Of a stretch of 64,000 nt of DNA, positions 46,334 through 62,362 are shown piece after piece; the first letter of the stretch is position 1; each line of letters opens with the position of its first letter. The position numbers and the translations under genes were made by a program. Source of the DNA: Scenedesmus sp. PABB004 (Eukaryota); assembly GCA_014905635.1 (NCBI GenBank), contig JABVCE010000013.1, forward strand, positions 62,001 through 126,000, written 5' to 3'. The notes beneath the pieces were generated by a model, which saw nothing but the letters and a program-made list of their open reading frames with translations, was not told where the DNA came from and made no database searches.

Positions 46334-47080
46334 TCACGCGCCGCCGCCGTCACCGCCGCTCCGGCTGGCGGCGAGCTGCAGCGCCGCGGCGGCGGCGGCC
46401 GCCGCGCCCGCCGCCGCGCGCGCGTCTGACGCCCGCGGCGCCGCCGCCAGCGCCGCGCCGCCCTTGGCACGCGCCGCGCCGGCCACGCCGACCACCGCCA
46501 CGACGCCGACGCCGTCGCCTTCGCCGGCGTTGGCGCCGCCGGCGCCGTCCCCGCGGGCTGCCGCCGCCGCGGCCGCGGCCCTGGCGCGGCGCGCCGCGCG
46601 GCGCGTGCGCAGCCACGCGGCCGCCGCGAGCGCGGCGCGCAGCAGCTCGGGTGCGAGCATGACGCAGACGTCGACAAAGTAGCAGGCGACGAGCACCGAC
46701 AGCAGCGCCGCGCTGCCGGGGCGCGCGCGGAGCAGCAGCGCGGCGACCAGGATGACCAGCTCCGCGCCGTACGCGGCGACGTCGGCGGCGAGCAGCAGGC
46801 CCGACGCGAGCGGCCGCGCCGCGAGCAGGTAGGCCAGGAAGGCGGCGTGCAGCGCGAGCAGCGCGCCGAGCTGCGCGTCGCTCGCGGCGGCAAAGTGGAA
46901 GGCGCCGAAGAAGAGCGCCGTGCCGAGGCGCTGCGCCGCGCTGGCGACGTAAAAGGCCAGCACCGCCGGCCGCAGCCGCGCGAGCGCGCCCGGCCGCTCG
47001 TCGCCGACCAGGTCGTCCACCAGGTGGCCAAAGCGATCCAGCCACGCCGCGTCGCCCGCGGCGGCGGCCGCGCCGGCGCC

Positions 47081-47111
<31 letters not shown>

Positions 47112-50100
47112 CCGCCTGACATCCACGTCTGCTGCCGCGCGAGGCCGGCGCCGGGCGCGGCGGCGCCGCCGTCGGACGGGCCCTGCAGCGCGACGCCGCT
47201 GGCCGACGCGAGCTCGCCCCAGCCGCCGGCGGCGGTGCCGCGCTCCGCGCGCCACTCCCGCTCCTCGTCGCTGTCGCTGGAGCCGCTGTGCGCAACCGGC
47301 GGGCCGCGCACGTCGCGCGGCAGCTCGCGCGCCTCGTCCAGGGGCTGCGGGCCGCCTGCGGCGGCGGGCGGCACGCGCGGGCGGGGGCGAGGGCGGCAGC
47401 GGCGCATTGGGCGGGCGGCAGCGCCGGGCAGCGGCGCCGGCGGCGTGCTGCCGGCCGACTGCTGGGGGGCGAGGGTCGTGCGACCGACCTCGGCTGTGCC
47501 GCGGCGGCCCCGCGCCGTCGGGGCGGCGCTCGGACGACGCCGGCCGGCTGCGGGCTCCGCCGCCGGCGCCGTCGTCGGCCGCCGCCTCGCCGGGCAGGGA
47601 CTCTGCCCGCTGCAGGGCGGGCGCACGCGGGGAGCGAGCAGCACCTGTTGCGCTACGGGGGCTCCGGCTGAGGCGTTGAACTGCGGCCAGCGCGTCGTCG
47701 CGCTCGTCGCCGGAGGTTGGCAGGAAGCTGATGGCCGCCGCGCGCAGCGCGCCCGAGCGGGCGCCGAGCACGGGGGCGGGGCCCGCCGCGCCGCCGCCGC
47801 CGCCGGAGTCCGCGCCGCGCCAGGGCCGGGGCGCCTGCTCCGCGCGCCCGCTGCGCCGCCGGGGCGCGCACTCGCGCTCGCCGTCCGAGTCCGAGCCGCC
47901 GCCGCTGCCGGGCGGATCCTCGACCGCCTCGCTCAGCTCATCTTCGCCCGTGTGGCGGTCGCGCAGCACCAGCGTCGGGTTGTCCGCCGGCTCGCCCAGC
48001 AGCGCGAGCGTCGCCTGCGCGCGCTGCTGCCCCGCGGGCGGCGGTGCGGCGCCGCCGCCGCCCGTCGCGGGGCGCTCGTACGTGCGCAGTATGCTCGACC
48101 GGCTGCGCGGCGGCGGGCGCCGCGCGCCGGCGCGCTCCGCGCGCCACTCCCACAGGACATAGGCCCAGAAGGCAAACACGGGCAGCGGCAGCAGCGCGAC
48201 GACCGCGACGCCCGCGCCCGCGTCGGCGGCCGCGGCCGCGCTCGCGCCGCCGGCGGCCGCGAGCTTGGCCGCGCCGTAGACGACGGGGACCATGAGCAGC
48301 GTGTGGGCGAGCAGCTGGGGCTTGGGCGAGCGCAGCAGCCTGGGAGCAGCGTGCAGGCGCGAGAGAGGCGCGCGCAGGGCCGGGCGGGCGCGGGTCAAGG
48401 AGGGGTCAGAGCAGGCGGGGGGGGGGGGGGAGCGGGGAGGCGGCAAGCGCCGCCCCCGGGCGCCGCCGGCGCTCACGTGGGCAGGCTGTCGGGGCTGAGC
48501 CGCAGCAGGCGCCACGCGCCCAGCGCGGCGCCCTGGAGCAGCGTGGCCGCCGCGACCGCGACCACCAGCGTGAGCACGCTCATGCGCAGCTCGTGCAGCG
48601 AGGCGGGCTTGGGCTGGCGCACGTCGCCCGCCAGCACCACCGGCGCGCCGGCGCCGGCGCTGCCGTTGCCGTGCGGCGCGGCGCCGCTGCCGTCGCCGCC
48701 GAGCACCAGCACGCCCGTGCCGGCGCTGCCGCTGCCGTTGCTGGCCGCGTAGCCGCCGCCGGCCGCGTTGGCGGCCAGCCAGCTGTCCACGGAGCGCGCG
48801 TCGGGCGCGTCGCCCAGCAGGGCGCGGCCGTGCCGGTGGCGCGCGCGCGCGGCGTCGCCCCCGGCCGCCGCCATCAGGTGGCGGCGTGCGGCGGGGGAGG
48901 ACGGCAGCTGCTGCTTGATGTAGGCGGTCGCGTTGCTCGTCAGCTGCACCACGCGCTCGGCGGGCTTGACCAGGTTTGACCAGCTGCCGCGACGTGGGCG
49001 GCGCGTGAGCGGTCAGGCGCGGCGCCGCGCGCGCGTGCTCCCCGCGCCGCGGCCCCGCCGCCGGCGGCCGTGCAGCACGGCCGCGCCGCGCTCACTCGAG
49101 GCCGGAGCAGAGCCGCACGTACTCGGCCGGCAGCCAGGGCACCGCGAGGCTGACCGACATCGCGAGGAACTGCGTGTGCCCCACACTGCGCAGCAGGCTG
49201 GTCGTGCCGCCCGCGGTGCCGCCGCTCGCGACCGACGCCGCCGCGCCGAGCGCGGAGGCGGCCGCCGAGACCGCGGTCGCAGACGACCCCATGTCAGCGG
49301 CGCGCTGCAGCAGGCCGCTCCCCGGCACAGACACCTGGCCCGCACGGCGGCGGGCAGGCGGGCGGGCGCCAGCAGGGGTCGGCGCCGGCCGAGCGCGCGC
49401 GCTGCGCGCCGCGCTGCGCATCGCGCCGCGCGCCCGGCCGCACCGCCAGCCGCTTGTCCTGCACGCCGCGGCTGCCCGCCAGGTCCTGGTACGCGGCGCC
49501 CAGCACCTCCACGGCCGCGGTGGTGCCCGGCCACGAGCGCAGCCACATTACGTACGCCGTCGCCGCGCCCGTCGCCGCGCCGTCGGGCGTGGCCGCGAGC
49601 GAGTCGGGCGCGGCCGTCATGTTGAGCAGGGCGGCGTTGGTGAGCCAGATGCGGCTGCTGCTGAACGCGGCGAGCTGTTGCGCGGAGCCGCCCGCGTCGA
49701 GCGCGCCCGCGTCCGGCGCGGCGGCGCTCGCGTTGGCGCCGCCCGCTGTCGTCGTCGTTGTCTCGACCTCGTCCGCCACCCAGTGCACCGGCTCTGAGAA
49801 GGTCAGCAGCAGCTGGAAGGCCGGCGCGTCCACGGTCGGCCGCAGCGTGACGGCCATGCTCAGCAGCACCGGCGGCAGCGAGTCCAGCACCACCTGCGGC
49901 GGGCAGAGGTGGGCGCGCGCGCACGCGCGCGCGTGGGGCGGCGGGGCGGCGGGGGCGGCGGGGGCGGCGGGGCCGCCGGTCGCGGGCGTGGGGCGCACCT
50001 CGGTGACGACCGGCTGCAGCGCGACCTGCGCCGCGCACCACGTGGCGTTGGGCACCGCCGGCAGCAGCGACACCGACCAGCGCCCCTCGCCCGGGAGCGT

Positions 50101-53100
50101 GGCCGCGAGCTCGCACATGCCGCCGGCAACCGCAAGGCAGGGCAGGCCGGGCAGGAGCACGACCGAGCCGTCCCCGGCGCCGGACGCGGTGGCGTCGTTT
50201 GACGCGCCGGCGCCGCCCGCGGCAGCGCCGCTGCCGCCGGGCGCAAACATCGGCAGGCTCAGCAGGCGCAGGCTGCACGCGTTGCCCGCGCCGCCGCCGA
50301 GCGTGGGCCCCTCAGGGCAGTAGAGTTTGCGCGACTCGGGCGACGGAAAGACGACGAGGACGGGGACGACGGCGGCCGCCGCGCCGCGCGGCGCGTAGAG
50401 CACGGGCGCCAGCTCGCTCGCCGGCGCCTCGCACACGCCCAGCAGCGGCGCGCGCACGCGGCAGCACGCGGCGGCGCTCGTGTTGGCCTCCGCCGCCGCG
50501 CCGGGGTCGAGCTCGTAGCCGGGCGCGCAGGGGAAGGCGGCGTGCGGGGCGTCGGCGTAAAAGGCGCAGGTCGGCACGAACACGCAGCACGCGGCCAGTG
50601 ACGGGCTGGTGGCGTTGGCCGCTGATGGCGCGGGCGCGTAGCCCGGCGGGCAGGCAAACGCGGTGCCGTTGGGCGCGGCGAAGCCGCAGGTGGGCTCAAA
50701 GGCGCAGCGCTGCGCGGCGGCGTCCCAGGCGTAGTGAGGCACGCAGCCGCACGCGTGGCCCGTCGCGGGCGCGGGCGCGTCGACGCAGGCGCTGGTCGCG
50801 TGGCTGACGTTGGCGCACGGCGCCGCCGCGCAGCCGTCGATGTCTGGCGGCGGGCCGGCGGCGCGGCGGGCCGGCGCGCGTGAGAGGGGCGGTGGCGGGC
50901 GGCGAGCCGCGGCACGCGCGCGAGGGGGGTGGACGCCCGTCGGCGCCGCACCTGCGTCGCACGTCTGCCCCTCCCAGCCGGCGGTGCAGCTGCACACGCC
51001 CCCGGCGCAGGCGCTGGCATGGCCGTAGCAGTAGTTGGGTGTGAGGGTGCAGTCGTCTGCGGCGCGCGATCCAGCGGCGCGGTGCGGCTGGCGGCGCGTG
51101 CGCGCCCCGGCAGCGCGGCGCGGCGCGGCCTGGCGGACGGTTGGCGCGACCGGGCGGTGGGCAAGGCCGCACCTTTGCACGCCGCGGTGCCGCTGTCCCA
51201 CGAGTGCCCAGCGGCGCAGGCACAGGCGTAGCCAACGCTCGGCGCGACGGCGTCGGCGCAGCTGCCGTTGATGGCGTGCGCCGCGCCGTCGCAGGGCGCG
51301 CTGGTGCAGCCGTCCACGTCTGCCGGGGCGGCGCGCCGCGCGCAGCGCGGCGGGTCAGCCTGCTCGTCCGGTGAGAGAGGCGCGCTCGCCGTGCTGCGCC
51401 GCGCCCCTGCTGGCCAGCACGCACCGTACTGGCAGCGCTCGCCGTGCCACGCCGCCGCGCAGCCGCACACGCCCGCGGCGCAGGTGCCATTGCCGTGGTC
51501 GCCGTTGCACCAGTCCGGCACGCCCACGCAGTCGTCTGTGCGGCGGTCGGCGGCGCGGCGCGCGCGGTGGGGCGGGGTGAGGCCGCCGCACGGCAGCGGA
51601 CTGGCTGCCAAGGATGCGGTGGGGCGGGCGCCGCCGCACCCGTGCACTCGAGGGCGCTCTGGTTCCAGGAGAAGCCCTGAGCGCAGACGCACGCGTGGTC
51701 TGTGAACGGCGGCACACGGTCGAGACAGACGCCCGGCAGCGCGTTGCTGGTGGCGTTGCACGGGCTGGCTGCGCAGGCATCAAAGTCTGCGCGCCGCGGC
51801 GGGCGGTCAGCAACAACGCGGCGGGCAGCGCCGCCACGCGCGGCGAGTCCTGCGCCGCAGGCTCCCTGTAATGCAGCCGCGCGCACCGACGCAGCATGCC
51901 GCGTTGCTCAGGCTGGTGACGTTTGCGCGGGCGGCGTCCAGCACAAACCCAGGGTCGCACTGGAAGGCCGTCCCGTTCTCCAACGCCGCGCTGCAGTGTG
52001 GGATGTACTGCGGGCGAGGCAGAGGGGGGTGAGCCCCCGCGCGCGCGAGGCAAAGACGAGCGCGCAGTCACTGCTGGTGTGATCCCAGCACACAAGGCCC
52101 CTCGACTCCTCACCGTGCAGCACGCCGCCTGGTCTGGGCTGGGGCTGGCGCCCTGAGGATTGTACTGATACCAGGTCGGGCACTGCAGGGCGCTGCCATC
52201 GCTGTTGTACTGCGCGCACGTGCGGCCGACAGTGATGGCGGCCGCGAGCTGCACGTTGTTGGCCGCGTTGCTGTCCGGCTGGCCCGCGGCAGCCACGCTG
52301 GTGTTGGCGCTGAACGAGCCGCTGCTGGTGCCCTTGACCACCACCGCGTAGCTTGCGCTGCCGCCAGCAGCCAGCGACGCCACCGGCCCGCAGGTCAAGA
52401 CGTGCCCGCTGATGCTGCAGCCTGCGGCGGCGGCAGTGGACAAGCGGCCAGCGCGCATGTGAGATGTCAGATTGGCGAGCTGCGCCCCTGCACCCACACA
52501 GCGCCCCCGCGCGCCCCACCTGCTGGCGCTGGCGCCACAAACGCCAGCCCCGCTGCGGGCAGCGTCTGTGTGGTGGTCACGTTGGCTGCCTCCCATGTGC
52601 CCTGGTTGACAACGCTGATGTTGAAGGCGGCCGTGTCTGCAATCAGGATCTGCCCATCGGCCGGCACCAAGCTCTGGTTCAGCGCCAGGTCAGGGAACAG
52701 CTCGACCTGCGCGCGCATGGTGACGGGCAGACGGAGCAGGACGCAGCGGGTGAGCGCAGCTGCGGCGTGCGCGGTGCGCCGCGGCCAGGGCCCCGCCCGC
52801 GCGGGCCCGGCACTCACGCAGCACGTCGCCTGACTTGGGCTGGTGTTGTTCGCGGCCGCAGCTACGAACAGCCACCAGGCGTCGCTGGCCGTGCAGTCGT
52901 ACGCGCTGCCATCGCTGTTGTACTGCGCGCACGTGCGGCCGACCGTCACGGCGGTGTGCAGGGGACCGTTTGTGGTCAGGTTGCTGTCGCGGTCAACGTC
53001 CAGCGTTGTGTTGACGGCAAAGCTGCCTGCCGCGCTGGTGGACACAGCAAACGTGAAGCTCGTGCTTCCGCCGGCAGCAGCCAGCGTGGCGATGGGCCCG

Positions 53101-56100
53101 CAGGTTAGGTCCTGCCCGCTGATGCTGCAGCCTGCAGCAGCGACGGCAGCACACTGTTAGAGGGCCAAGCCAGCGCTGCTCTGCTGGCAATGCGCCCGCC
53201 GCCAGCCCTCCCGCCGCACACCTGCTGGTGCAGGCGCCACAAACGCCAGGCTGGCCGGCAGCGAGTGCGTCAGGTTGGTGTTGACAGCCTCCCAGTCCCC
53301 GTGGTTGACGATGCTGGTGGTGAAGCTCACGGTGTCTGAGATCAGGACCTCGCCGCTGGCTGGAGCGGTGGTCTGGCTGATCACGAGGTCAGGGAACAGC
53401 TCGTACTGCGCGGCGCGCGCCAGCAGCAGGCAGGGCGGCGGGCAAACCGTGAGCGCTGCTCCTGCTGCCGCTGCTGCTGCTGCTGCCGCTGCTGCCGCTG
53501 CTGCCGCTGCTGCTGCTGCTGCCGCTGCTGCCGCTGCTGCCGCTGCTGCTGCTGCTGCTGCCGCAGCTGCTACCACTGCCGCCAGCACGCAGCAGCACTC
53601 ACGCAGCACGTTGGGTTGTCGGGGCTGGTGTTGCCAGCAGCGGTGGTGTTGAACGCCCACATGTTGTTGCAGTTGAACTGGCTGCCGTCGCTGTTGCACT
53701 GCGCGCACGTGCGGCCGACAGTGATGGCGGCCGCGAGCTGCACGTTGTTGGCCGCGTTGCTGTCCGGCTGGCCCGCGGCAGCCACGCTGGTGTTGGCGCT
53801 GAACGAGCCGCTGCTGGTGCCCTTGACCACCACCGCGTAGCTTGCGCTGCCGCCAGCAGCCAGCGACGCCACCGGCCCGCAGGTCAAGACGTGCCCGCTG
53901 ATGCTGCAGCCTGCGGCGGCGGCAGTGGACAAGCGGCCAGCGCGCATGTGAGATGTCAGATTGGCGAGCTGCGCGCCTGCACCCACACAGCGCCCCCGCG
54001 CGCCCCACCTGCTGGCGCTGGCGCCACAAACGCCAGCCCCGCTGCGGGCAGCGTCTGTGTGGTGGTCACGTTGGCTGCCTCCCATGTGCCCTGGTTGACA
54101 ACGCTGATGTTGAAGGCGGCCGTGTCTGCAATCAGGATCTGCCCATCGGCCGGCACCAAGCTCTGGTTCAGCGCCAGGTCAGGGAACAGCTCGACCTGCG
54201 CGCGCATGGTGACGGGCAGACGGAGCAGGACGCAGCGGGTGAGCGCAGCTGCGGCGTGCGCGGTGCGCCGCGGCCAGGGCCCCGCCCGCGCGGGCCCGGC
54301 ACTCACGCAGCACGTCGCCTGACTTGGGCTGGTGTTGTTCGCGGCCGCAGCTACGAACAGCCACCAGGCGTCGCTGGCCGTGCAGTCGTACGCGCTGCCA
54401 TCGCTGTTGTACTGCGCGCACGTGCGGCCGACCGTCACGGCGGTGTGCAGGGGACCGTTTGTGGTCAGGTTGCTGTCGCGGTCAACGTCCAGCGTTGTGT
54501 TGACGGCAAAGCTGCCCGCCGCGCTGGTGGACACAGCAAACGTGAAGCTCGTGCTTCCGCCGGCAGCAGCCAGCGTGGCGATGGGCCCGCAGGTTAGGTC
54601 CTGCCCGCTGATGCTGCAGCCTGCAGCGGCGACGGCAGCACACTGTTAGAGGGCCAAGCCAGCGCTGCTCTGCTGGCAATGCGCCCGCCGCCAGCCCTCC
54701 CGCCGCACACCTGCTGGTGCAGGCGCCACAAACGCCAGGCTGGCCGGCAGCGAGTGCGTCAGGTTGGTGTTGACAGCCTCCCAGTCCCCGTGGTTGACGA
54801 TGCTGGTGGTGAAGCTCACGGTGTCTGAGATCAGGACCTCGCCGCTGGCTGGAGCGGTGGTCTGGCTGATCACGAGGTCAGGGAACAGCTCGTACTGCGC
54901 GGCGCGCGCCAGCAGCAGGCAGGGCGGCGGGCAAACCGTGAGCGCTGCTCCTGCTGCCGCTGCTGCTGCTGCTGCCGCTGCTGCCGCTGCTGCCGCTGCT
55001 GCTGCTGCTGCCGCTGCTGCCGCTGCTGCCGCTGCTGCTGCTGCTGCTGCCGCAGCTGCTACCACTGCCGCCAGCACGCAGCAGCACTCACGCAGCACGT
55101 TGGGTTGTCGGGGCTGGTGTTGCCAGCAGCGGTGGTGTTGAACGCCCACATGTTGTTGCAGTTGAACTGGCTGCCGTCGCTGTTGCACTGCGCGCACGTG
55201 CGGCCGACAGTGATGGCGGCCGCGAGCTGCACGTTGTTGGCCGCGTTGCTGTCCGGCTGGCCCGCGGCAGCCACGCTGGTGTTGGCGCTGAACGAGCCGC
55301 TGCTGGTGCCCTTGACCACCACCGCGTAGCTTGCGCTGCCGCCAGCAGCCAGCGACGCCACCGGCCCGCAGGTCAAGACCCGCCCGCTGATGCTGCAGCC
55401 TGCGGCGGCGGCAGTGGACAAGCGGCCAGCGCGCATGTGAGATGTCAGATTGGCGAGCTGCGCGCCTGCACCCACACAGCGCCCCCGCGCGCCCCACCTG
55501 CTGGCGCTGGCGCCACAAACGCCAGCCCCGCTGCGGGCAGCGTCTGTGTGGTGGTCACGTTGGCTGCCTCCCATGTGCCCTGGTTGACAACGCTGATGTT
55601 GAAGGCGGCCGTGTCTGCAATCAGGATCTGCCCATCGGCCGGCACCAAGCTCTGGTTCAGCGCCAGGTCAGGGAACAGCTCGACCTGCGCGCGCATGGTG
55701 ACGGGCAGACGGAGCAGGACGCAGCGGGTGAGCGCAGCTGCGGCGTGCGCGGTGCGCCGCGGCCAGGGCCCCGCCCGCGCGGGCCCGGCACTCACGCAGC
55801 ACGTCGCCTGACTTGGGCTGGTGTTGTTCGCGGCCGCAGCTACGAACAGCCACCAGGCGTCGCTGGCCGTGCAGTCGTACGCGCTGCCGTCGCTGTTGTA
55901 CTGCGCGCACGTGCGGCCGACCGTGATGGCGGCCACGAGCTGCACGTTGTTGGCCACGTTGCTGTCGGGGGCGCCCAGCAGTGCCACAGAGGTGTTGACA
56001 GTCTTGTTGCCGGGCGACGTGGCCCGCAGCGTCACGAGCACAGTCGTGTTTGCGTTGACTGCCAGCGGCGCTGACAGCCCGCACGTCACCGTCTGACCCG

Positions 56101-59100
56101 TCGCGGCGCAGCCTGCGCATCAGCACGAGACGGCGAGTGTTAGGCGACAAGCGGTGCGGCCACGGAGCTGCGGCACGCCACACAGGCGCACCTGCTGGCG
56201 ATGAGCTTGCCAGCTCCAGGCCGGCCGGCAGGTCCAGGGTGATGGTGATGTTCTCGGCCGCCCACTCGCCCTGGTTGGCCAGCGTGGCGCTGATGTTGAG
56301 AGTGGAGGCGATGAGCAGCTGCCCGCTGGCCGGCGCCACGCTCTGGCTCAGCACCACGTCGGGGAGCAGCCGGCGCTGCGGGCGGCGGGGGTGGCGGGCG
56401 GGCAGGGCGAGTCGGCGCTCCAGCCATGCCCTGGGCGCGGGCACCTACCGCCGAGGCCCGGCTGGCCGCCGCGCCCCCGCGCCCGCTCACGCAGCAGGTG
56501 TCGCGCGGCAGCGCGCCCGCGAGCGCGCCCGCCGCGCTGCCGTTTGTGGCGTAGCCCGGGTTGAGCGCGGCGCAGTCGTACGCGGTGCCGTTGGTCCAGT
56601 ACGACCCGCAGGTCGGCTGGTAGCAGCAGGTGTCGTGGTCGACCGTCGTCGAGGTCGACTGGTTGGCGTTGGCCAGGTAGCCAGCGACGCAGTCAAACGG
56701 CGCGACCGAGATGATCGCGGTCGCGTTGAACGTCGGCACCGCGCCGCACGTCGGCGTGTAGCAGCACTCCCCCGCGACGCCGGTGCTACAGTTGCGGGGC
56801 AGGCCCGCGTGCGTGGAGTTGATGGCGAGCGAGCAGAGCTCGCGCGTCGACGCGGCGCTCAGCGGCACGCAGCACGCGGCGTCGCTCGGCGGCGCGGACG
56901 CGAGCGCCATGGCGTCGGGGCCCTCGCCTGCGACGGTGCAGGCCCAGGGGCTGCCGCCTGGGTCAGCCACGCCGCAGGTCGGCACAAACGCGCAGCAGGT
57001 CGCATTGTCGAGGGTCGTCGCGGCGGGGTTGATCGCCGTCCACACGCCCACCGAGGGGCAGGCAAAGGGCGCGCCCGTCGCGTTGGCGGCGCCGCAGGTC
57101 GGCACAAACGCGACGCAGCAGGCGGCGTCGCTCGGCGCCGTCGCGTTGACTGCCGCCGCGCTCAGCACGCTGCCGGGGGCGCACGCGTACGCGCCGCCGC
57201 CCGGCGCGGCGAGGCCGCAGGTCGGCGTGAAGCGGCAGCAGCGGGCAAAGTCGGGCGCGGTCGTGGCGGCCTTGGCGGGGTCGTTGTCCCAGCTCGCGCC
57301 CGCGGCGGCGCAGGGGAACGCGCCGCCGCCGGGCATGAAGGCGCCGCAGGTGAGCGGCGTCGTCGCTGGAGTATAGAACCAGGGCGGCGCGCTGCGCGCG
57401 GGCCACCAGTCGCACGCCGCGCACGTGGTCGCGGGGTCGCAGCTCGCCGCCCAGTCGGACACGGAGCCCGCGCCGCTATAGGACGACCAGTTGATGGCGC
57501 TGCAGCTCGCGTCTGCGCGGCGGCGGCGGGCACGGCGGCGGGCGCGGGGGGTTCGTCGCGTCGGGCGCCCGCGGCCGCGCGCCGCGCGCGCCGGCCCGCA
57601 GCGCGGCCTGTGGCGCGCGCACTGTTCCAGGTGAGGCGGGACATGTCTGGCTTGATGTTCGTGCCCTTCAGCTTGAGGTAGGAGAGCTTGGGGAAGGCCG
57701 TCTGGTTGTACCACGCGGCCGGCAGGTCGCCGTAGAGGTCGGTGTGGCCCGCGAGGTTGCTGCAGGCCGCGGCGGCGCGGCGGCGGGTGAGGTCAGGCGC
57801 GCGAGCAGGCCAGCGGCGCTGAGCGCGCCCCCTTCCCAAGAGCAGGGCTGCTGCGCCCCTCCCGCGCCGCGCCGGGGCTCACACGCTGATGAGCGTCTGT
57901 GCCCACGCCGCGGGCGAGCCGTCGGCCTTGGCGCCCCACGTCGCGGGGATGGTGCCAGAAAACATGCGGCGCACGCCGCGCACGACCGTCGCGCCGAGGC
58001 TGCCCGTGCGCGCCCACGCGTCGAGCGCGGCGCCGACGCTCGGCACGACCGTCATGTTGTCCCACGCGTCGTCGGGGCAGAAGCAGGCGCCGTTGGTCAC
58101 CGTGCCGCCGGGGCCGTCGGCGACGCAAAACTCGGGCGCGCTCTGCTGCCACGCGTACTCGGGCGCGTGCCGCCCCGCGGAGCAGTGCGCGAGCCTGCGC
58201 GCGGGGCGGGCCCGCGTCGGCAGGCCGCCCGTGGCGCCGCCCGCGGCGGCAGGCCGGGCCGGGCCGGGCCCGCCGGGCGCACGGCCCTGCGCTCCCCCGC
58301 GGCCCTGCGTGCCGCCCACCCGAGGTGCCGCAGGTTTGGGAAGATGTCGGGCAGGCCGGCCAGCGCGGCGAGGGAGCCGCCGAGCATGTTGAAATTCAGG
58401 TTGCTGCGCGGCACACGCGGCGCGAGGCCGTGGGGGCAAGGCCGTGGGCGGGGCCCGCCTTTCAGCACGCAGCGTGCGCGCGCCGAGGCCCGGCGGCAGC
58501 GGCGTTAGCGCGAATCAGCACGCAAGCCGCGCCGCAGCAGCTGCTCACAGGTACCAGACGTGCTGCCCCGCCTGGTCGGGGCCGGCAAAGGCGCTGAAGT
58601 CGAGCTGCTCCGAGTAGAGTGTGAGGTTGCGCCAGTCGCTGCAGCATGGGGATGGGCGGGGCGGGCGCGGCGGTCGGGCGGCGGCCGGGCGGAGGCGGCC
58701 GTGCGCGGGCGGGCGCGCAGGCCCGGGCCGCGCCCAGCGCCGCGCCGCGCTGAGCGTGCGCCCTGCCGGCCTCACATCGCGGCGATGCGGTTGGCGGCCG
58801 ACGGGTCGCGCATGCGGCGCGGGTCGGACGCGCAGGTGGTCGCGTTGACGCAGCCCACGACGTCCCCGCCGCCGTCGCGGACGAGGCCGTCGGTCGCGTT
58901 GACGCTCCACCCGCGCCGGGCGGGGTCGCTCGGCAGGCTGCAGTCGGCGACGCACTCCACAAAGGGCCAGCCGCAGGGGTCGTGCCGCGGGCTGGCCATC
59001 GCGCTCCAGAGGTCGTCCGCGGCGGCGTACTGCCCACCGACGCGCGCGGCGCACTTGTCGGCGTCTGCGCCCGCGCGCGGCGTGAGGCGGCCCTCCGCGC

Positions 59101-62100
59101 CCGCGCGGTCGCAGGCGTTGGCGTAGGCGTACAGCCAGGCGCTGCCGGACCAGCAGGGCGTCACGCGGGCGCCGCTGCCCGGGTCGGACGCGAGGAACGC
59201 GTCCGAGCACGCGTCCACCGGGAAGCGCTGCCCCCCGACCGTGACGCCCACGTTGTATTCGCAGTTGTCGGCCTTGGCGCCGTCCCACGCGCCCAGCGCG
59301 CCGCCGCAGCCGACGTTGCCGCCGTCGCCGCGGGTCGAGAGGCCCTGCCGCGCGCCCGGCGGCACGAAGCGCGTCCTGCGGCGGCGGCGGCGGGGGCGGC
59401 GGCGGCGGCGGCGAGGGTCGGTCAACGGCTGCGCGGCCATGCCGCAGGCAGGGTGGCAGGGGCGACCGCCGCGCGCTGGTGGCGCGCACGCAGCGCGTCG
59501 ACCCGCGCCTGTGCGCGCGCGCGTCGACCGCGTTGGTGGCAAAGCTGTCCAGCCAGAACTTCTGCAGCACGAGGTAGGAGGGCCAGGCTGCGCGCAGCGT
59601 GCGGCGGCGCCGTGAGCGGCCAAGCTGCGCCCGGCCGCGCCCGCGCCGCGCCCCGCCGCCGCGCCGCGCACCCGCCGACTCCTGCGTGACCACGAAGACC
59701 GAGCCGTATCCGAGCTCGTCGAGCACGGCAGCCTTGGAGCCGGTGGTGAAGGTGTTGAACAGCGCGAGGCGCGACCGCGTCGCGTCGACGCGCACGCTGT
59801 ACAGCGCGAGGGCGCAGCCCGCGGCGCTGAACATCGCGCACGCCGGCGGCTTGAGGTAGCCCGCGGCCGTGGCCTGCCAGTCGGTCCAGCCCTCGTCGCA
59901 GGGGCGCAGGCTGACGAGGTACGCGTAGGACCGCGGCCCCGGCGCCGCCGCGTTGGCGGCAAAGCCCACGCACAGGCCGCGGTGCGTGATGCGCGCGCTC
60001 GTTGCGAGGCTGCCCTGCACCTGGAAGCACTGCCGCTCGCTCGGCACCGCCTCGCACGGCGTCAGCTCCACGCCCAGCGCGTGGCTGCCGAGCTCGGCCA
60101 GGCTCCAGCCCGTGCCGCTCGGCGGCGTGAGGCTCGCGGGCGCGGTCCAGCAGCGGTTGGTGCCCTGGAAGCGGTGGTTGGAGTTGAGCCGGAAGCGCGT
60201 GCACCCTGCGCGGCGGGGGCGACAGGGGAGGCGGCGCGGCGCGTCGGCTGCCGCACTGCCCCGCGCCGCCGCGCCGCCGCGCCCGCGCACGATGCCACCG
60301 AGCCTGCCGCGCACCGGCGCGCGCGCGCGCGCACGCACACACCCGCCGCTGAGCCCTTGCCCGCGGGCAGCTCAAAGACCTCCTGGAAGAGGAATAGGCG
60401 GTCCAGCGCCTCCTGGTCAGCGTTGAGCGCGGCCTGGCGCGGCAGGATGCCCTCGTACAGGCTGGCGGCCACGTTGGTCGCGTCGTCGTCGCTCGCGGCG
60501 CGCCACGCCTCAAACGGCCACATTGGCGGCACGAACCAGGCCTTGCGCGCGTCCCACATGTCGGCCGCGCCGGGCGCGGCCGCGGCGGCCTCGGCCGCCA
60601 GCCAGCGCGTCACGCCGCCCTCCAGGCAGCCGCCGTACTGGGGCAGGCCGTGCGCCTGCCGCGCCGCGGCGGTGTGGTAGGCCTCGTCATGTGCCAGGTA
60701 CTGCACCACCGGCGCGGCGCAGCGCCCGCCGTGGCGCCGGTCAAACGTGGCCCAGTTGCAGGGCACGCGCGGCAGCAGCCCCGTCGGCGCCGGCACGCGC
60801 GGGTCGGCCGCGTGGAGCGAGTCGTCGGCGTACGCCGCGGGCACCTTGAACGACAACGTCATGTTGGCCAGGCGATTGACCTGGAGCAGCTGCGACCCGC
60901 GGCGACAGGCCAGCACGGGCAGGCCGTGCGGCAGCGCGCGCGCGCAGGTCGCGTTGGCCGCCGCGGCGTCGGGCGGCGCGGGCGTCATGCCCAGCGTGCA
61001 CACGTCGCCGTCGTCAAAGGGCCCGATGCAGTGGTCGCCCTGGTCAACGGGCTCGTACGCGCCGGGCTGAAACACGTCGGTGTCGCCGGCATCGGAAATC
61101 ATGAACCCGTTGGCCGACACAGTCGTCCCGTTGGGCAGGGCCGTGGACACAAAAGCGAGGTTGTGGTACACGCCTTCGATGTCAGTCACGGAGGTAAAAG
61201 GGTAGTCATACCAGGAATGGAGCGGCCACAGCGGCGTCGGCAGACTGCCAGTGTTGTCGAGGGGGCGCGGGGCCGGAGGGGTGCCGGTGCCGAGCACCGT
61301 CAGCACAACCGCCTGCCCGCTCGCGCCGTACGCGATGTCGGTGGGCGCGGTGTTGGGGTAGACTGCGGTGCCGCCGAGGGTGTCGGGCTGCAGCTCAAAC
61401 GGCTCCCACCGCAGCGTCACCGCGCAGCGCCGCGCGCTCCAGACCCAGCGCAGCTCCCGGCCCGACGCGACGAGGTCGCGCAGGAACAGGTTGCAGGTGT
61501 GGTCGCTCGTGGGCGCCGCGGGGGCCTCCTCCACCCACTCCCAGCCCAGCTCGCCGGGCGGCGTGAGCAGCGAGGTCGCGGTCGGCGGCGCGGGGACGGC
61601 GTCGTTGGGGATGAGCAGCGTGCCGTTGGCGCCGTCGCAGAAGCGTGAGAATGACGCATAGCAGATGGTCGATCCAAATGTGTGTGCGCTGGTGGACAGG
61701 GAAGCGTAGCCAGCAATGTTTGGGTCAAACATGTCGTAGTCCACGAGCACCGCGTTGGGGTCGCTCCCCCGCGCCGCCTGCGGCGCGCCCTGGGGCAGCA
61801 CGACGTTGACCTGCGCGCGCGGGAGGCCGGTCGACACGTAGAAGGGGACCGCGTGGGGCTGCGCGCCGTCGGCCCAGTCGCGGCGCAGGTAGAGCGACAC
61901 CAGCGCGTCGTCGGGCGGGTGCCGGCCCAGCCACCACTGCTTCTGCTGCGGCGGCGCCGCCCAGTCGCCATCGGCCCAGGTGTACGCCAGCGCCGCCCAG
62001 TTGGCGCCGGGGTCGTACGACGCGGCGGGGCCCGCGGCGCCGTTCTTGGGCCCCGCCGGCATCAGGGTGTCAACATACGCGGCGGCCGCGCCTGCGGGGC

Positions 62101-62362
62101 GTGCGGGCGCGCGTGGGCGGCGGGGCGCGCGCGCCGCGGCGCAGCGGGGCGGCTGCGGCCAGCGCGCAGGCAGCATGCCGACGGCGCGGCCGAGCTCACC
62201 GGGCAGCAGCTGGAGCGCCGGCAGCCAGCTGCGTGCGGCGGCGGCGGCACCGCCGCGTGCCCGCCCGCCCGCAGGACTCGGGCGGGGCGCCAGCAGCACC
62301 GCCAGCAGCGCCGCCAGCAGCAGCACGAGGCGCGCCGGCGGGCGAGGGGGCCAGCTGCCCAT
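46334..62362 (-). CDS. Giant modular cell-surface membrane protein: signal peptide, unknown domain, ricin-B-like, LRR cap + LRRs, 4-Cys repeats, 6 DUF11-like domains, EGF-like, Ig-like, FLC/TRP-like multi-TM domain; about 30 exons
   Basis: Co-oriented chain of exons with coding-like composition and many NxS/T sequons. DPCGWPFVEC cap; FSGTIPATWG and LYGDLPAAW LRRs; PDL...VVNQG...DSNAANN; CxCxxGWxGxxC EGFs; LTFSEPV; GHTQFLAMSVSLAVPWLPAEY. A single-gene model is inferred. Confidence 0.7.
52192..55924. repeat. Near-perfect intragenic tandem repeat, 1489-bp period, about 2.5 copies (exons and introns)
   Basis: Matching ORF ends at 52467/53956/55445 and 53157/54646 (offset 1489); only a few SNPs seen between copies. 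Confidence 0.97.
53455..53581. repeat. (GCT/GCC)n intronic triplet repeat, duplicated at 54944-55070
   Basis: Read directly; apparently the same pattern in both copies. Confidence 0.9.

Follow-up and report, generated by a model that had tools for sequence, protein, structure and literature searches.

A giant modular surface glycoprotein predicted in Scenedesmus sp. PABB004 is probably built upon an agglutinin-type multi-pass membrane module

The DNA considered here is a 64,000-nucleotide (nt) stretch from the alga Scenedesmus sp. PABB004 (GenBank assembly GCA_014905635.1, contig JABVCE010000013.1, positions 62,001 to 126,000 of the forward strand), which we refer to in its entirety as the window. 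Its minus strand contains a predicted gene at 46334..62362 that a preliminary description, made from the letters alone, had read as a giant receptor- or channel-like protein. Our curated model of this gene consists of 33 exons with a coding sequence of 12129 nt in a single open frame, which begins with an ATG at 62362, ends with a stop codon at 46334-46336, and encodes a predicted protein of 4042 amino acids (aa). The model is based upon the periodicity of G+C content at third codon positions (GC3), a frame that remains open through all of its splices, and uniform GTG/CAG introns. We consider it rather probable that this locus is one gene encoding a secreted-pathway glycoprotein of ~4042 aa, in which a modular ectodomain is mounted upon a multi-pass membrane module of the SAG1/SAD1 type. 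SAG1 is the plus and SAD1 the minus sexual agglutinin of Chlamydomonas, and both have been described as membrane proteins of the multi-pass type (PMC8777248).

The window has a G+C content of ~80% (0.70-0.84 in each 2-kb bin) and stop-free runs of 100-950 codons are found in all six of its frames. The length of an open reading frame (ORF) is therefore no evidence of a gene. On the minus strand, from ~62100 down to 46350, one frame at a time has a GC3 of 0.9-1.0, with a switch to another frame at intervals of a few hundred bases, as is characteristic of a spliced gene in a eukaryote. A codon-position-GC strand map of the entire window was too noisy for use. Exon chains were assembled by dynamic programming and then corrected by reading the junctions and by tblastn with a relative from Scenedesmus sp. 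(P0056). The early automatic chains either skipped halves of DUF11 exons or added a 22-nt micro-exon and were dropped in favor of the hand-checked model. All 32 introns of that model run from GTG to CAG with lengths of 79-289 nt, thus leaving no room for an intergenic region. The coding sequence has GC1, GC2, and GC3 values of 0.68, 0.62, and 0.93, respectively, with an exon-by-exon GC3 of 0.79-0.99 (33/33 exons), while the G+C content of the introns is 0.82. There is only one signal peptide, located at the N-terminus, the transmembrane (TM) helices are confined to the C-terminus, and neither a second signal peptide nor a start context was found in the model upstream of the membrane module. 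We favor a single gene because the frame is open over all 33 exons, the splice sites are uniform, the introns are short, the signal peptide is single, and the TM helices are exclusively C-terminal, as well as because P0056, an NCBI model, unites EGF-like modules, four-cysteine (4-Cys) modules, the upstream motif described below, and the TM part in one protein. The start, the stop, and most of the module borders given in the preliminary description coincide with exon borders (60205-59672, 57512-56491, and 49893-49444). Borders are least certain for exons 4-9, and the last intron (between exons 32 and 33) was chosen because the resulting spacing fits that of the relatives. The window's own annotated protein did not turn up in the protein searches, and a word-index search using the read-through of exons 28-29 against proteins of 817-2330 aa returned no match.

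The membrane module is introduced by an immunoglobulin (Ig)-like domain, encoded by exon 29 (49444..49893; this and all other features described are on the minus strand), which contains the string TFSEPV and directly adjoins the membrane part. By alignment, this exon corresponds to residues 141-226 of the relative P0021 (E 8e-6), a region that matches Big_12 (PF19078) at 28.8 bits (threshold 27). The Ig-like assignment made previously is thus upheld by way of P0021, but not by a profile match of the exon itself, which has none in Pfam at E≤1. Compared with P0021, exon 29 also includes two added in-frame Ala/Thr/Gly-rich stretches, which are either genuine loops or small unrecognized introns. 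Exon 30 (49096..49334) encodes an Ala/Ser-rich helix followed by a helix with the GHTQFLAMSVSLAVPWLPAEY motif, both assigned from conservation in relatives and from predicted helices. The exon is 74% identical to P0056 by tblastn and a motif hidden Markov model places the motif at collinear positions in eight relatives. Exon 31 (48477..48983) encodes an extracellular loop of ~130 aa and TM1, as judged from hydropathy, alignment, and sequon count, while exon 32 (47645..48339) encodes TM2, TM3, a conserved QQRAQATLALLG..DNPTL motif, and the start of a disordered cytosolic loop, as judged from alignment and hydropathy. The remainder of this loop, an amphipathic pre-TM helix (WLDRFGHLVDDLVGDE), TM4-TM7, an Ala-rich tail, and the stop codon are all in exon 33 (46334..47355), the part for which 53 relatives were found. 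From the Ig-like domain onward, the order is consequently the Ala/Ser-rich stretch, the motif helix, the ~130-aa loop, three TM helices, a loop of ~330 aa, the amphipathic helix, four TM helices, and the tail. The ~330-aa loop between TM3 and TM4 is rich in Ala, Gly, Pro, and Arg and contains the conserved motif, which reads QQR.QATLALLG..DNPTL. Hydropathy indeed resolves seven strong hydrophobic helices in a 3 + 4 arrangement on either side of the disordered loop, in agreement with the multi-TM region originally proposed.

Ahead of the membrane module, the protein has 63 N-x-S/T sequons and 153 Cys; the loop that follows the motif helix has a further three sequons, and the sequence beyond TM1 has none. 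This distribution would fit an N-out, C-in topology. An AlphaFold2 (AF2) model of P0021 residues 141-1233, calculated from alignment A2 (47 rows), has a mean predicted local distance difference test score (pLDDT) of 50. Its only confident part is TM4-7 (pLDDT 80-96), while TM1-3 reach 58-80 and a pair of weaker helices, which cover the Ala/Ser stretch and the motif, have values of 35-66 (~62-66 for the motif helix). Together, the seven strong helices and these two weak, low-confidence ones would total nine. Foldseek found no PDB match for the P0021 model at E≤0.001, its top rows being antibody V domains at E~0.5 on the beta part, and the best 50 structure matches included no canonical TRP or polycystin chain, all matches being within the range common for helical bundles. 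A PDB sequence search with the A1 family profile likewise returned nothing or chance-level matches, and no pore or selectivity feature was identified in the membrane module.

To place the module among known proteins, its last 151 aa (window 46598-47050) served as a query against 1.84 billion representative proteins, which yielded 53 proteins at E≤1e-3 and 13 at E≤1e-30. Most of these are short fragments. The long ones have the upstream motif, the 3 + 4 helix layout, and a very long loop in common, as judged from the hydropathy of ten relatives and the window protein. All of the named relatives are chlorophyte, the closest being hypothetical proteins from Scenedesmus sp. and Tetradesmus obliquus. 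A more distant subfamily includes P0028, a Gonium pectorale 'SAD1 protein' (library E 5.6e-8; pairwise E 9e-11 over 138 residues at 33% identity), P0025, an Edaphochlamys debaryana 'Minus agglutinin' (library E 5.1e-11), and P0035, a Gonium protein with the UniRef name 'TRP C-terminal domain-containing protein', together with unnamed proteins of Pleodorina, Chlamydomonas schloesseri, Sanguina, and Ulva. The C-terminal TM block is thus homologous to that of named agglutinins, and the 3 + 4 helix blocks, the long loop, and the upstream motif of an agglutinin-type module are all present in the window protein. Ferris et al. (2005) are reported to have noted that conservation between the two agglutinin heads is concentrated in two stretches of hydrophobic helix, a pattern into which the two TM blocks would fit. 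In the volvocine subfamily (P0025, P0028, P0029, P0031, P0035, and P0045), the cytosolic loop between TM3 and TM4 measures 700-1300 aa, which is far above that of the window protein. Additional word-index searches contributed little: the A1 alignment gave 7 matches from 7999 candidates, presumably because the candidates were swamped by low-complexity words, while P0051 retrieved only itself.

The ectodomains attached to this module vary. P0021 (1233 aa) carries it with only ~280 aa of ectodomain, consisting of Ig-like domains alone, P0051 has a proline-rich region, and P0056 has EGF-like and 4-Cys modules as in the window protein. Two of the public models look incomplete, as P0056 starts within the EGF region and skips the Big_12 exon, while P0058 starts within Big_12 and is missing the last TM helix. 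In both cases, from Scenedesmus and Tetradesmus, the true orthologue is probably also a giant protein.

The ectodomain of the window protein extends over ~3200 aa and is rich in Cys and sequons. Exon 1 (62200..62362; donor GTGAGC) contains the start codon and a signal peptide with the hydrophobic core LVLLLAALLAVLLA (Kyte-Doolittle peak of 2.03 at aa 8-26), which can be seen directly in the sequence, as the preliminary description had stated. The following ~580-aa N-terminal region, encoded by exon 2 (60343..62091), was likewise correctly described as belonging to no recognizable family: it has no Pfam match and no PDB sequence match at E≤1, and a metagenome scan produced 19 pattern matches of which none was confirmed as a relative. 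Exon 3 (59672..60205) encodes a Cys-containing segment that had been called ricin-B-like. It matched nothing in Pfam at E≤10 in the ORF scan or at E≤1 in the exon scan, its only match to PDB sequences was at chance level, and a single-sequence AF2 model had a pLDDT of 31.6 and was unusable, and ricin-B thus stays a conceivable but unconfirmed assignment. A plant-type cap and a series of leucine-rich repeats (LRR) had been proposed for the stretch that corresponds to exons 4-9 (57623..59587), which in our gene model is Cys-rich with a few LRR-like strings. This proposal found little backing, since no LRR family was matched by Pfam in either the ORF or the exon scans and a strict LRR pattern occurs once in the whole 4042-aa protein, the other strings being degenerate and recognized by eye. 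PDB sequence searches with exons 2, 3, and 5 gave nothing or chance-level matches. Exon 10 (56491..57512) encodes tandem 4-Cys (C..C..CC) modules, five of which match a regular expression, and two extra units of other spacing can be read by eye in its translation. In total, the expression matches 14 times, with five matches in exon 10, one after each DUF11 domain, and three among the EGF exons, which bears out the tandem 4-Cys repeats reported earlier.

Exons 11-22 (52114..56375) encode six DUF11 domains, as determined from Pfam matches to half-domains and from reading of the junctions. All six are divided by an intron close to profile position 55, and a 4-Cys module comes after each of them. 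DUF11 (PF01345) half-domains were detected on 9 of 25 ORF translations. The N-half exons score 22.4 bits for the M1 type and 25.5 and 26.0 bits for the M2 and M3 types, which make up five of the six modules, while the M2-type C-half scores 19.1 bits. Only the M2/M3-type N-half exons thus reach the cut-off of 24.6 bits, and the earlier count of six domains is confirmed. Much of this region (52707..55684) consists of two tandem, head-to-tail units of 1489 bp, each comprising four exons with two DUF11 and 4-Cys modules, introns included. Modules 2-3 and 4-5 reside in the two units and module 6 in a third, partial unit behind them. The repeat was measured by a script comparison, as the longest period reported by Tandem Repeats Finder was 500, and the units differ at 4 positions per 1489 bp (99.7% identical). 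Such identity could reflect concerted evolution, a duplication of very recent date, or an error of assembly. In 52707-55684, local G+C content falls to ~0.70, versus ~0.80 elsewhere, and long microsatellites of the (CAG)n/(CGG)n type are found at ~54950-55060 and, in the repeat copy, at ~53460-53570, where they sit in 197-nt introns downstream of DUF11 modules.

The stretch between the DUF11 domains and the membrane-adjacent Ig-like domain is occupied by EGF-like modules. Exons 23-27 (50952..52007) encode a 4-Cys module and four EGF-like modules, each in an exon of its own, as identified from six-Cys patterns and by tblastn with the Scenedesmus protein P0056. Exon 28 (49999..50843) adds the last of the EGF-like modules, together with two 4-Cys modules and a beta-rich segment that is the first of Ig-like type, based upon the same patterns, an alignment with the N-terminus of P0021, and tblastn with P0056. 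The protein therefore has five six-Cys EGF-like patterns in all, which agrees with the EGF-like modules originally noted, although profile matches are below threshold: four short exons of the five EGF-bearing exons scanned match EGF-family profiles at E 0.0018-0.034, all below the cut-offs, and the long exon 28 has no such match. The relative P0056 matches cEGF at E 6.6e-5.

The preliminary description had further compared the membrane domain with the FLC/TRP-like family, which corresponds to PF06011 (TRP, FLC/Pkd2). In a Pfam scan of 58 family proteins, with a limit of E≤1 for 57 of them and of E≤0.001 for P0027, the sole recurrent family in the membrane-module relatives was PF06011, with matches in 12/58. 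The last TM block matches profile positions ~290-420 of 426 in ten proteins (P0003, P0009, P0012, P0025, P0026, P0030, P0034, P0036, P0037, and P0041; E 0.17 to 3e-6), and the Ala/Ser helix with the GHTQFLAM motif matches positions 9-86 in P0051 (E 0.022) and P0058 (E 0.071). The matches are hence collinear at both profile regions, in different proteins, with the middle of the profile unmatched. PF14558 (ML-like TRP_N) was not matched in the Pfam scans, the Ig-like domain ahead of the membrane being Big_12-like. A protein-language-model search of the Atlas with the 151 aa from the window pointed in a similar direction, as it returned a cluster of DGF-1 fragments (score 0.91; PF11040 in 34% and PF06011 in 18% of members) and a 'TRP ion channel domain' cluster (score 0.90; PF06011 in 33% of members). 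Both of these clusters are from Euglenozoa and constitute an embedding lead, not an alignment. PF11040 had no match in any family member scanned. A link to land plants is suggested only by an Atlas score of 0.83 for ~900-1050-aa streptophyte 'Bacterial Ig-like domain-containing' proteins and is likewise a lead. From the sequence comparisons, we consider distant homology of the membrane module to PF06011 likely, the module probably being remote kin of that domain, interrupted by insertions. Our literature searches found no paper linking agglutinins to PF06011 and none on plant or algal Big_12 membrane proteins.

Several points weigh against a single giant gene with an agglutinin-type and PF06011-related module. 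Both the gene model and the single transcript are predicted from genomic sequence alone, and several exon borders are purely model-based (exons 4-9, exon 29 with its possible in-frame insertions, and the last intron). As for the agglutinin-type module, 'SAD1' and 'Minus agglutinin' are names that the entries carry from their sources. There is no hydroxyproline-rich PPSPX shaft, with 0 PPSP in 4042 aa, and the sole proline run (P9) is in the cytosolic loop. It follows that the protein is no orthologue of the agglutinins, and nothing here implies a role in mating; its likeness to them is limited to the membrane module, and the function proposed for the protein as a whole comes by analogy with them. 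As for PF06011, the best match is 26.8 bits (E 3e-6) and none reaches the 28.5-bit cut-off required for formal membership, the window's own exons have no match at E≤10, and similar TM-helix composition can inflate weak scores among homologous sequences. The FLC/TRP-like comparison finds weak though consistent support in the collinear sub-threshold matches of the relatives, the Atlas clusters, and the name of P0035. If the weak signals were due to generic TM composition, the module would be a lineage-specific seven-helix receptor-like bundle unrelated to PF06011, as would accord with every score being under the cut-off. We judge this improbable, since PF06011 is the only recurrent family, is matched at two collinear profile regions in different proteins, and is echoed in the source-given name of P0035. 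Little more than a slight chance would we also give to the possibility that the 16-kb span holds two or more genes, such as a secreted glycoprotein and an agglutinin-type membrane protein, with the single frame being an artefact of 80% GC. Stop-free frames of 100-950 codons do occur in all six frames, the model was built from genomic sequence, and short kin such as P0021 carry the module with a ~280-aa ectodomain. However, all junctions have a canonical GTG donor and CAG acceptor with the correct phase, no non-coding gap exceeds 289 nt, GC3 does not leave the range of 0.79-0.99 in any exon, no second signal peptide or start context precedes the membrane module, and P0056 unites EGF-like and 4-Cys modules with that module.

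The remaining alternative is closest to the preliminary description, which had proposed a sensor in which the ectodomain is coupled to a membrane signaling domain. By this account, the membrane module would be a Pkd2/FLC-like force- or ligand-gated cation (Ca2+) pathway with the ectodomain, bound to the wall or to a ligand, as its gating tether, and the protein would serve as a wall-integrity sensor or mechanosensor more than as an adhesin. The collinear PF06011 matches in 12/58 relatives and the PF06011-bearing Atlas neighbors are both in its favor, as is the layout of the module: the Ig-like domain is right ahead of the first helices and the two extra helices would bring the total to nine, and the Schizosaccharomyces pombe Pkd2 is itself predicted to combine nine TM helices with an Ig-like ectodomain ahead of them and a disordered tail (10.1101/2022.08.11.503631) and is reported to be Ca2+-permeable upon membrane stretch (PMC9727806). 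Even so, no match reaches the Pfam cut-off, the domain is broken by the ~130-aa extracellular and ~330-aa cytosolic insertions, no pore or selectivity feature is identifiable, and the AF2 model is only partly confident (TM1-3 pLDDT 58-80, motif helix ~62-66). Our literature searches also found no channel activity of this module in any green-lineage member. We therefore regard a channel or sensor of this kind as unlikely. The polycystin-1-like label remains an analogy, as REJ, GPS, PLAT, PKD-repeat, and polycystin cation-channel families, as well as canonical TRP families, were without a match in the Pfam scans, which for the polycystin families covered ORFs, exons, and relatives.

We thus return to a single secreted-pathway glycoprotein on an agglutinin-type module as the preferred reading. 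Its ectodomain would begin with the N-terminal domain of no recognized family and Cys-rich segments, continue with tandem 4-Cys modules and six DUF11 beta-sandwiches, and end with EGF-like modules followed by two Ig-like domains, the second of which would open a membrane module composed of the small-residue helix and GHTQFLAM helix, the glycosylated loop, three TM helices, the disordered loop, four TM helices, and a cytosolic tail. By analogy with the agglutinins, the protein may be a surface adhesion or recognition molecule acting between cells or between the cell and its wall or matrix, with the membrane module anchoring the ectodomain and possibly relaying its engagement. Shortly after it is made, SAG1 is split into two parts, the agglutinin polypeptide and the integral-membrane SAG1-C65 (PMC4362204), and the precursor described here may similarly be cut between its ectodomain and membrane part.

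The architecture had initially been taken for an undescribed combination. This view does not hold at the level of the family, because the named relatives of this module include sexual agglutinins of volvocine algae and DGF-1 is, by analogy, likewise giant; given that SAD1 and 'Minus agglutinin' carry the module, a giant ectodomain with a multi-pass anchor belongs to a described family. What is new here is the make-up of the ectodomain (DUF11, EGF-like, and 4-Cys modules), the occurrence of the membrane module in a non-volvocine lineage together with a Big_12-type domain, and the collinear PF06011 signal in the membrane-module family. An unnamed giant algal surface protein can now be placed in the Chlamydomonas agglutinin membrane-module family, and the module is found outside of the volvocine algae (Scenedesmus, Tetradesmus, and Ulva) with quite different ectodomains. 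Spectacular as it is, the gene itself would be an ordinary member of a family about whose function little more than an outline is known. The weak but consistent likeness to Pkd2/FLC and DGF-1 suggests an old common design in which large extracellular structures are tied to a multi-helix unit. If the PF06011 link is true, it would offer testable ideas about how adhesion is converted to a signal in algal mating and about the roles of the uncharacterized relatives. A bolder extension, which we put forward as a long shot, is that the module of the window protein and the agglutinins is the green-lineage form of an ancient unit of an Ig-like 'hat' and PF06011-type nine helices, as in Pkd2/FLC and DGF-1, working as a force-gated ion pathway. 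In that event, a pull upon a giant adhesive ectodomain would be converted directly into a Ca2+ or electrical signal, which would provide a molecular handle on how ciliary agglutination starts signaling in Chlamydomonas and would reveal an unrecognized family of adhesion-coupled channels in algae, possibly also in land plants.

Among known systems, Polycystin-1 (PKD1) resembles the window protein in having a large modular ectodomain on a multi-pass membrane part, which was the basis of the original analogy. With the S. pombe Pkd2 and the Saccharomyces cerevisiae Flc1-3 proteins, the window protein shares an Ig-like ectodomain right before a multi-helix domain that is followed by disordered cytosolic sequence. 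In contrast to these, its membrane domain is split by two large insertions (~130 aa extracellular and ~330 aa cytosolic), its Ig-like domain is Big_12-like with ML-like TRP_N undetected, and its ectodomain is ~20 times longer. The DGF-1 proteins of Trypanosoma cruzi come closer in size, as they have several thousand residues, a signal peptide, and a giant, repetitive ectodomain with Ig-like and multi-TM parts (10.64898/2026.07.27.741050; PMC9967923), the former source describing an Ig-like 'hat' and 7-9 TM helices. Their ectodomain is made of beta-helix 'ribs', whereas that of the window protein is made of DUF11, EGF-like, and 4-Cys modules. The DGF-1 cluster was among the nearest named Atlas neighbors of the C-terminal block, as found in one embedding search and not by alignment. 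With prokaryotic surface proteins the algal protein shares DUF11 (PF01345) repeats, six in number, but here they are in a eukaryotic, intron-split setting with a 4-Cys module after each, and two of the DUF11 pairs appear to stem from the very recent tandem duplication of 1489 bp. SAG1 and SAD1 similarly combine a giant glycoprotein ectodomain with a C-terminal multi-pass membrane part. Compared to these agglutinins, the window protein has DUF11, EGF-like, 4-Cys, and Ig-like modules in place of a PPSPX shaft and belongs to another subfamily, that of the GHTQFLAM type, with its closest named kin in Scenedesmus and Tetradesmus.

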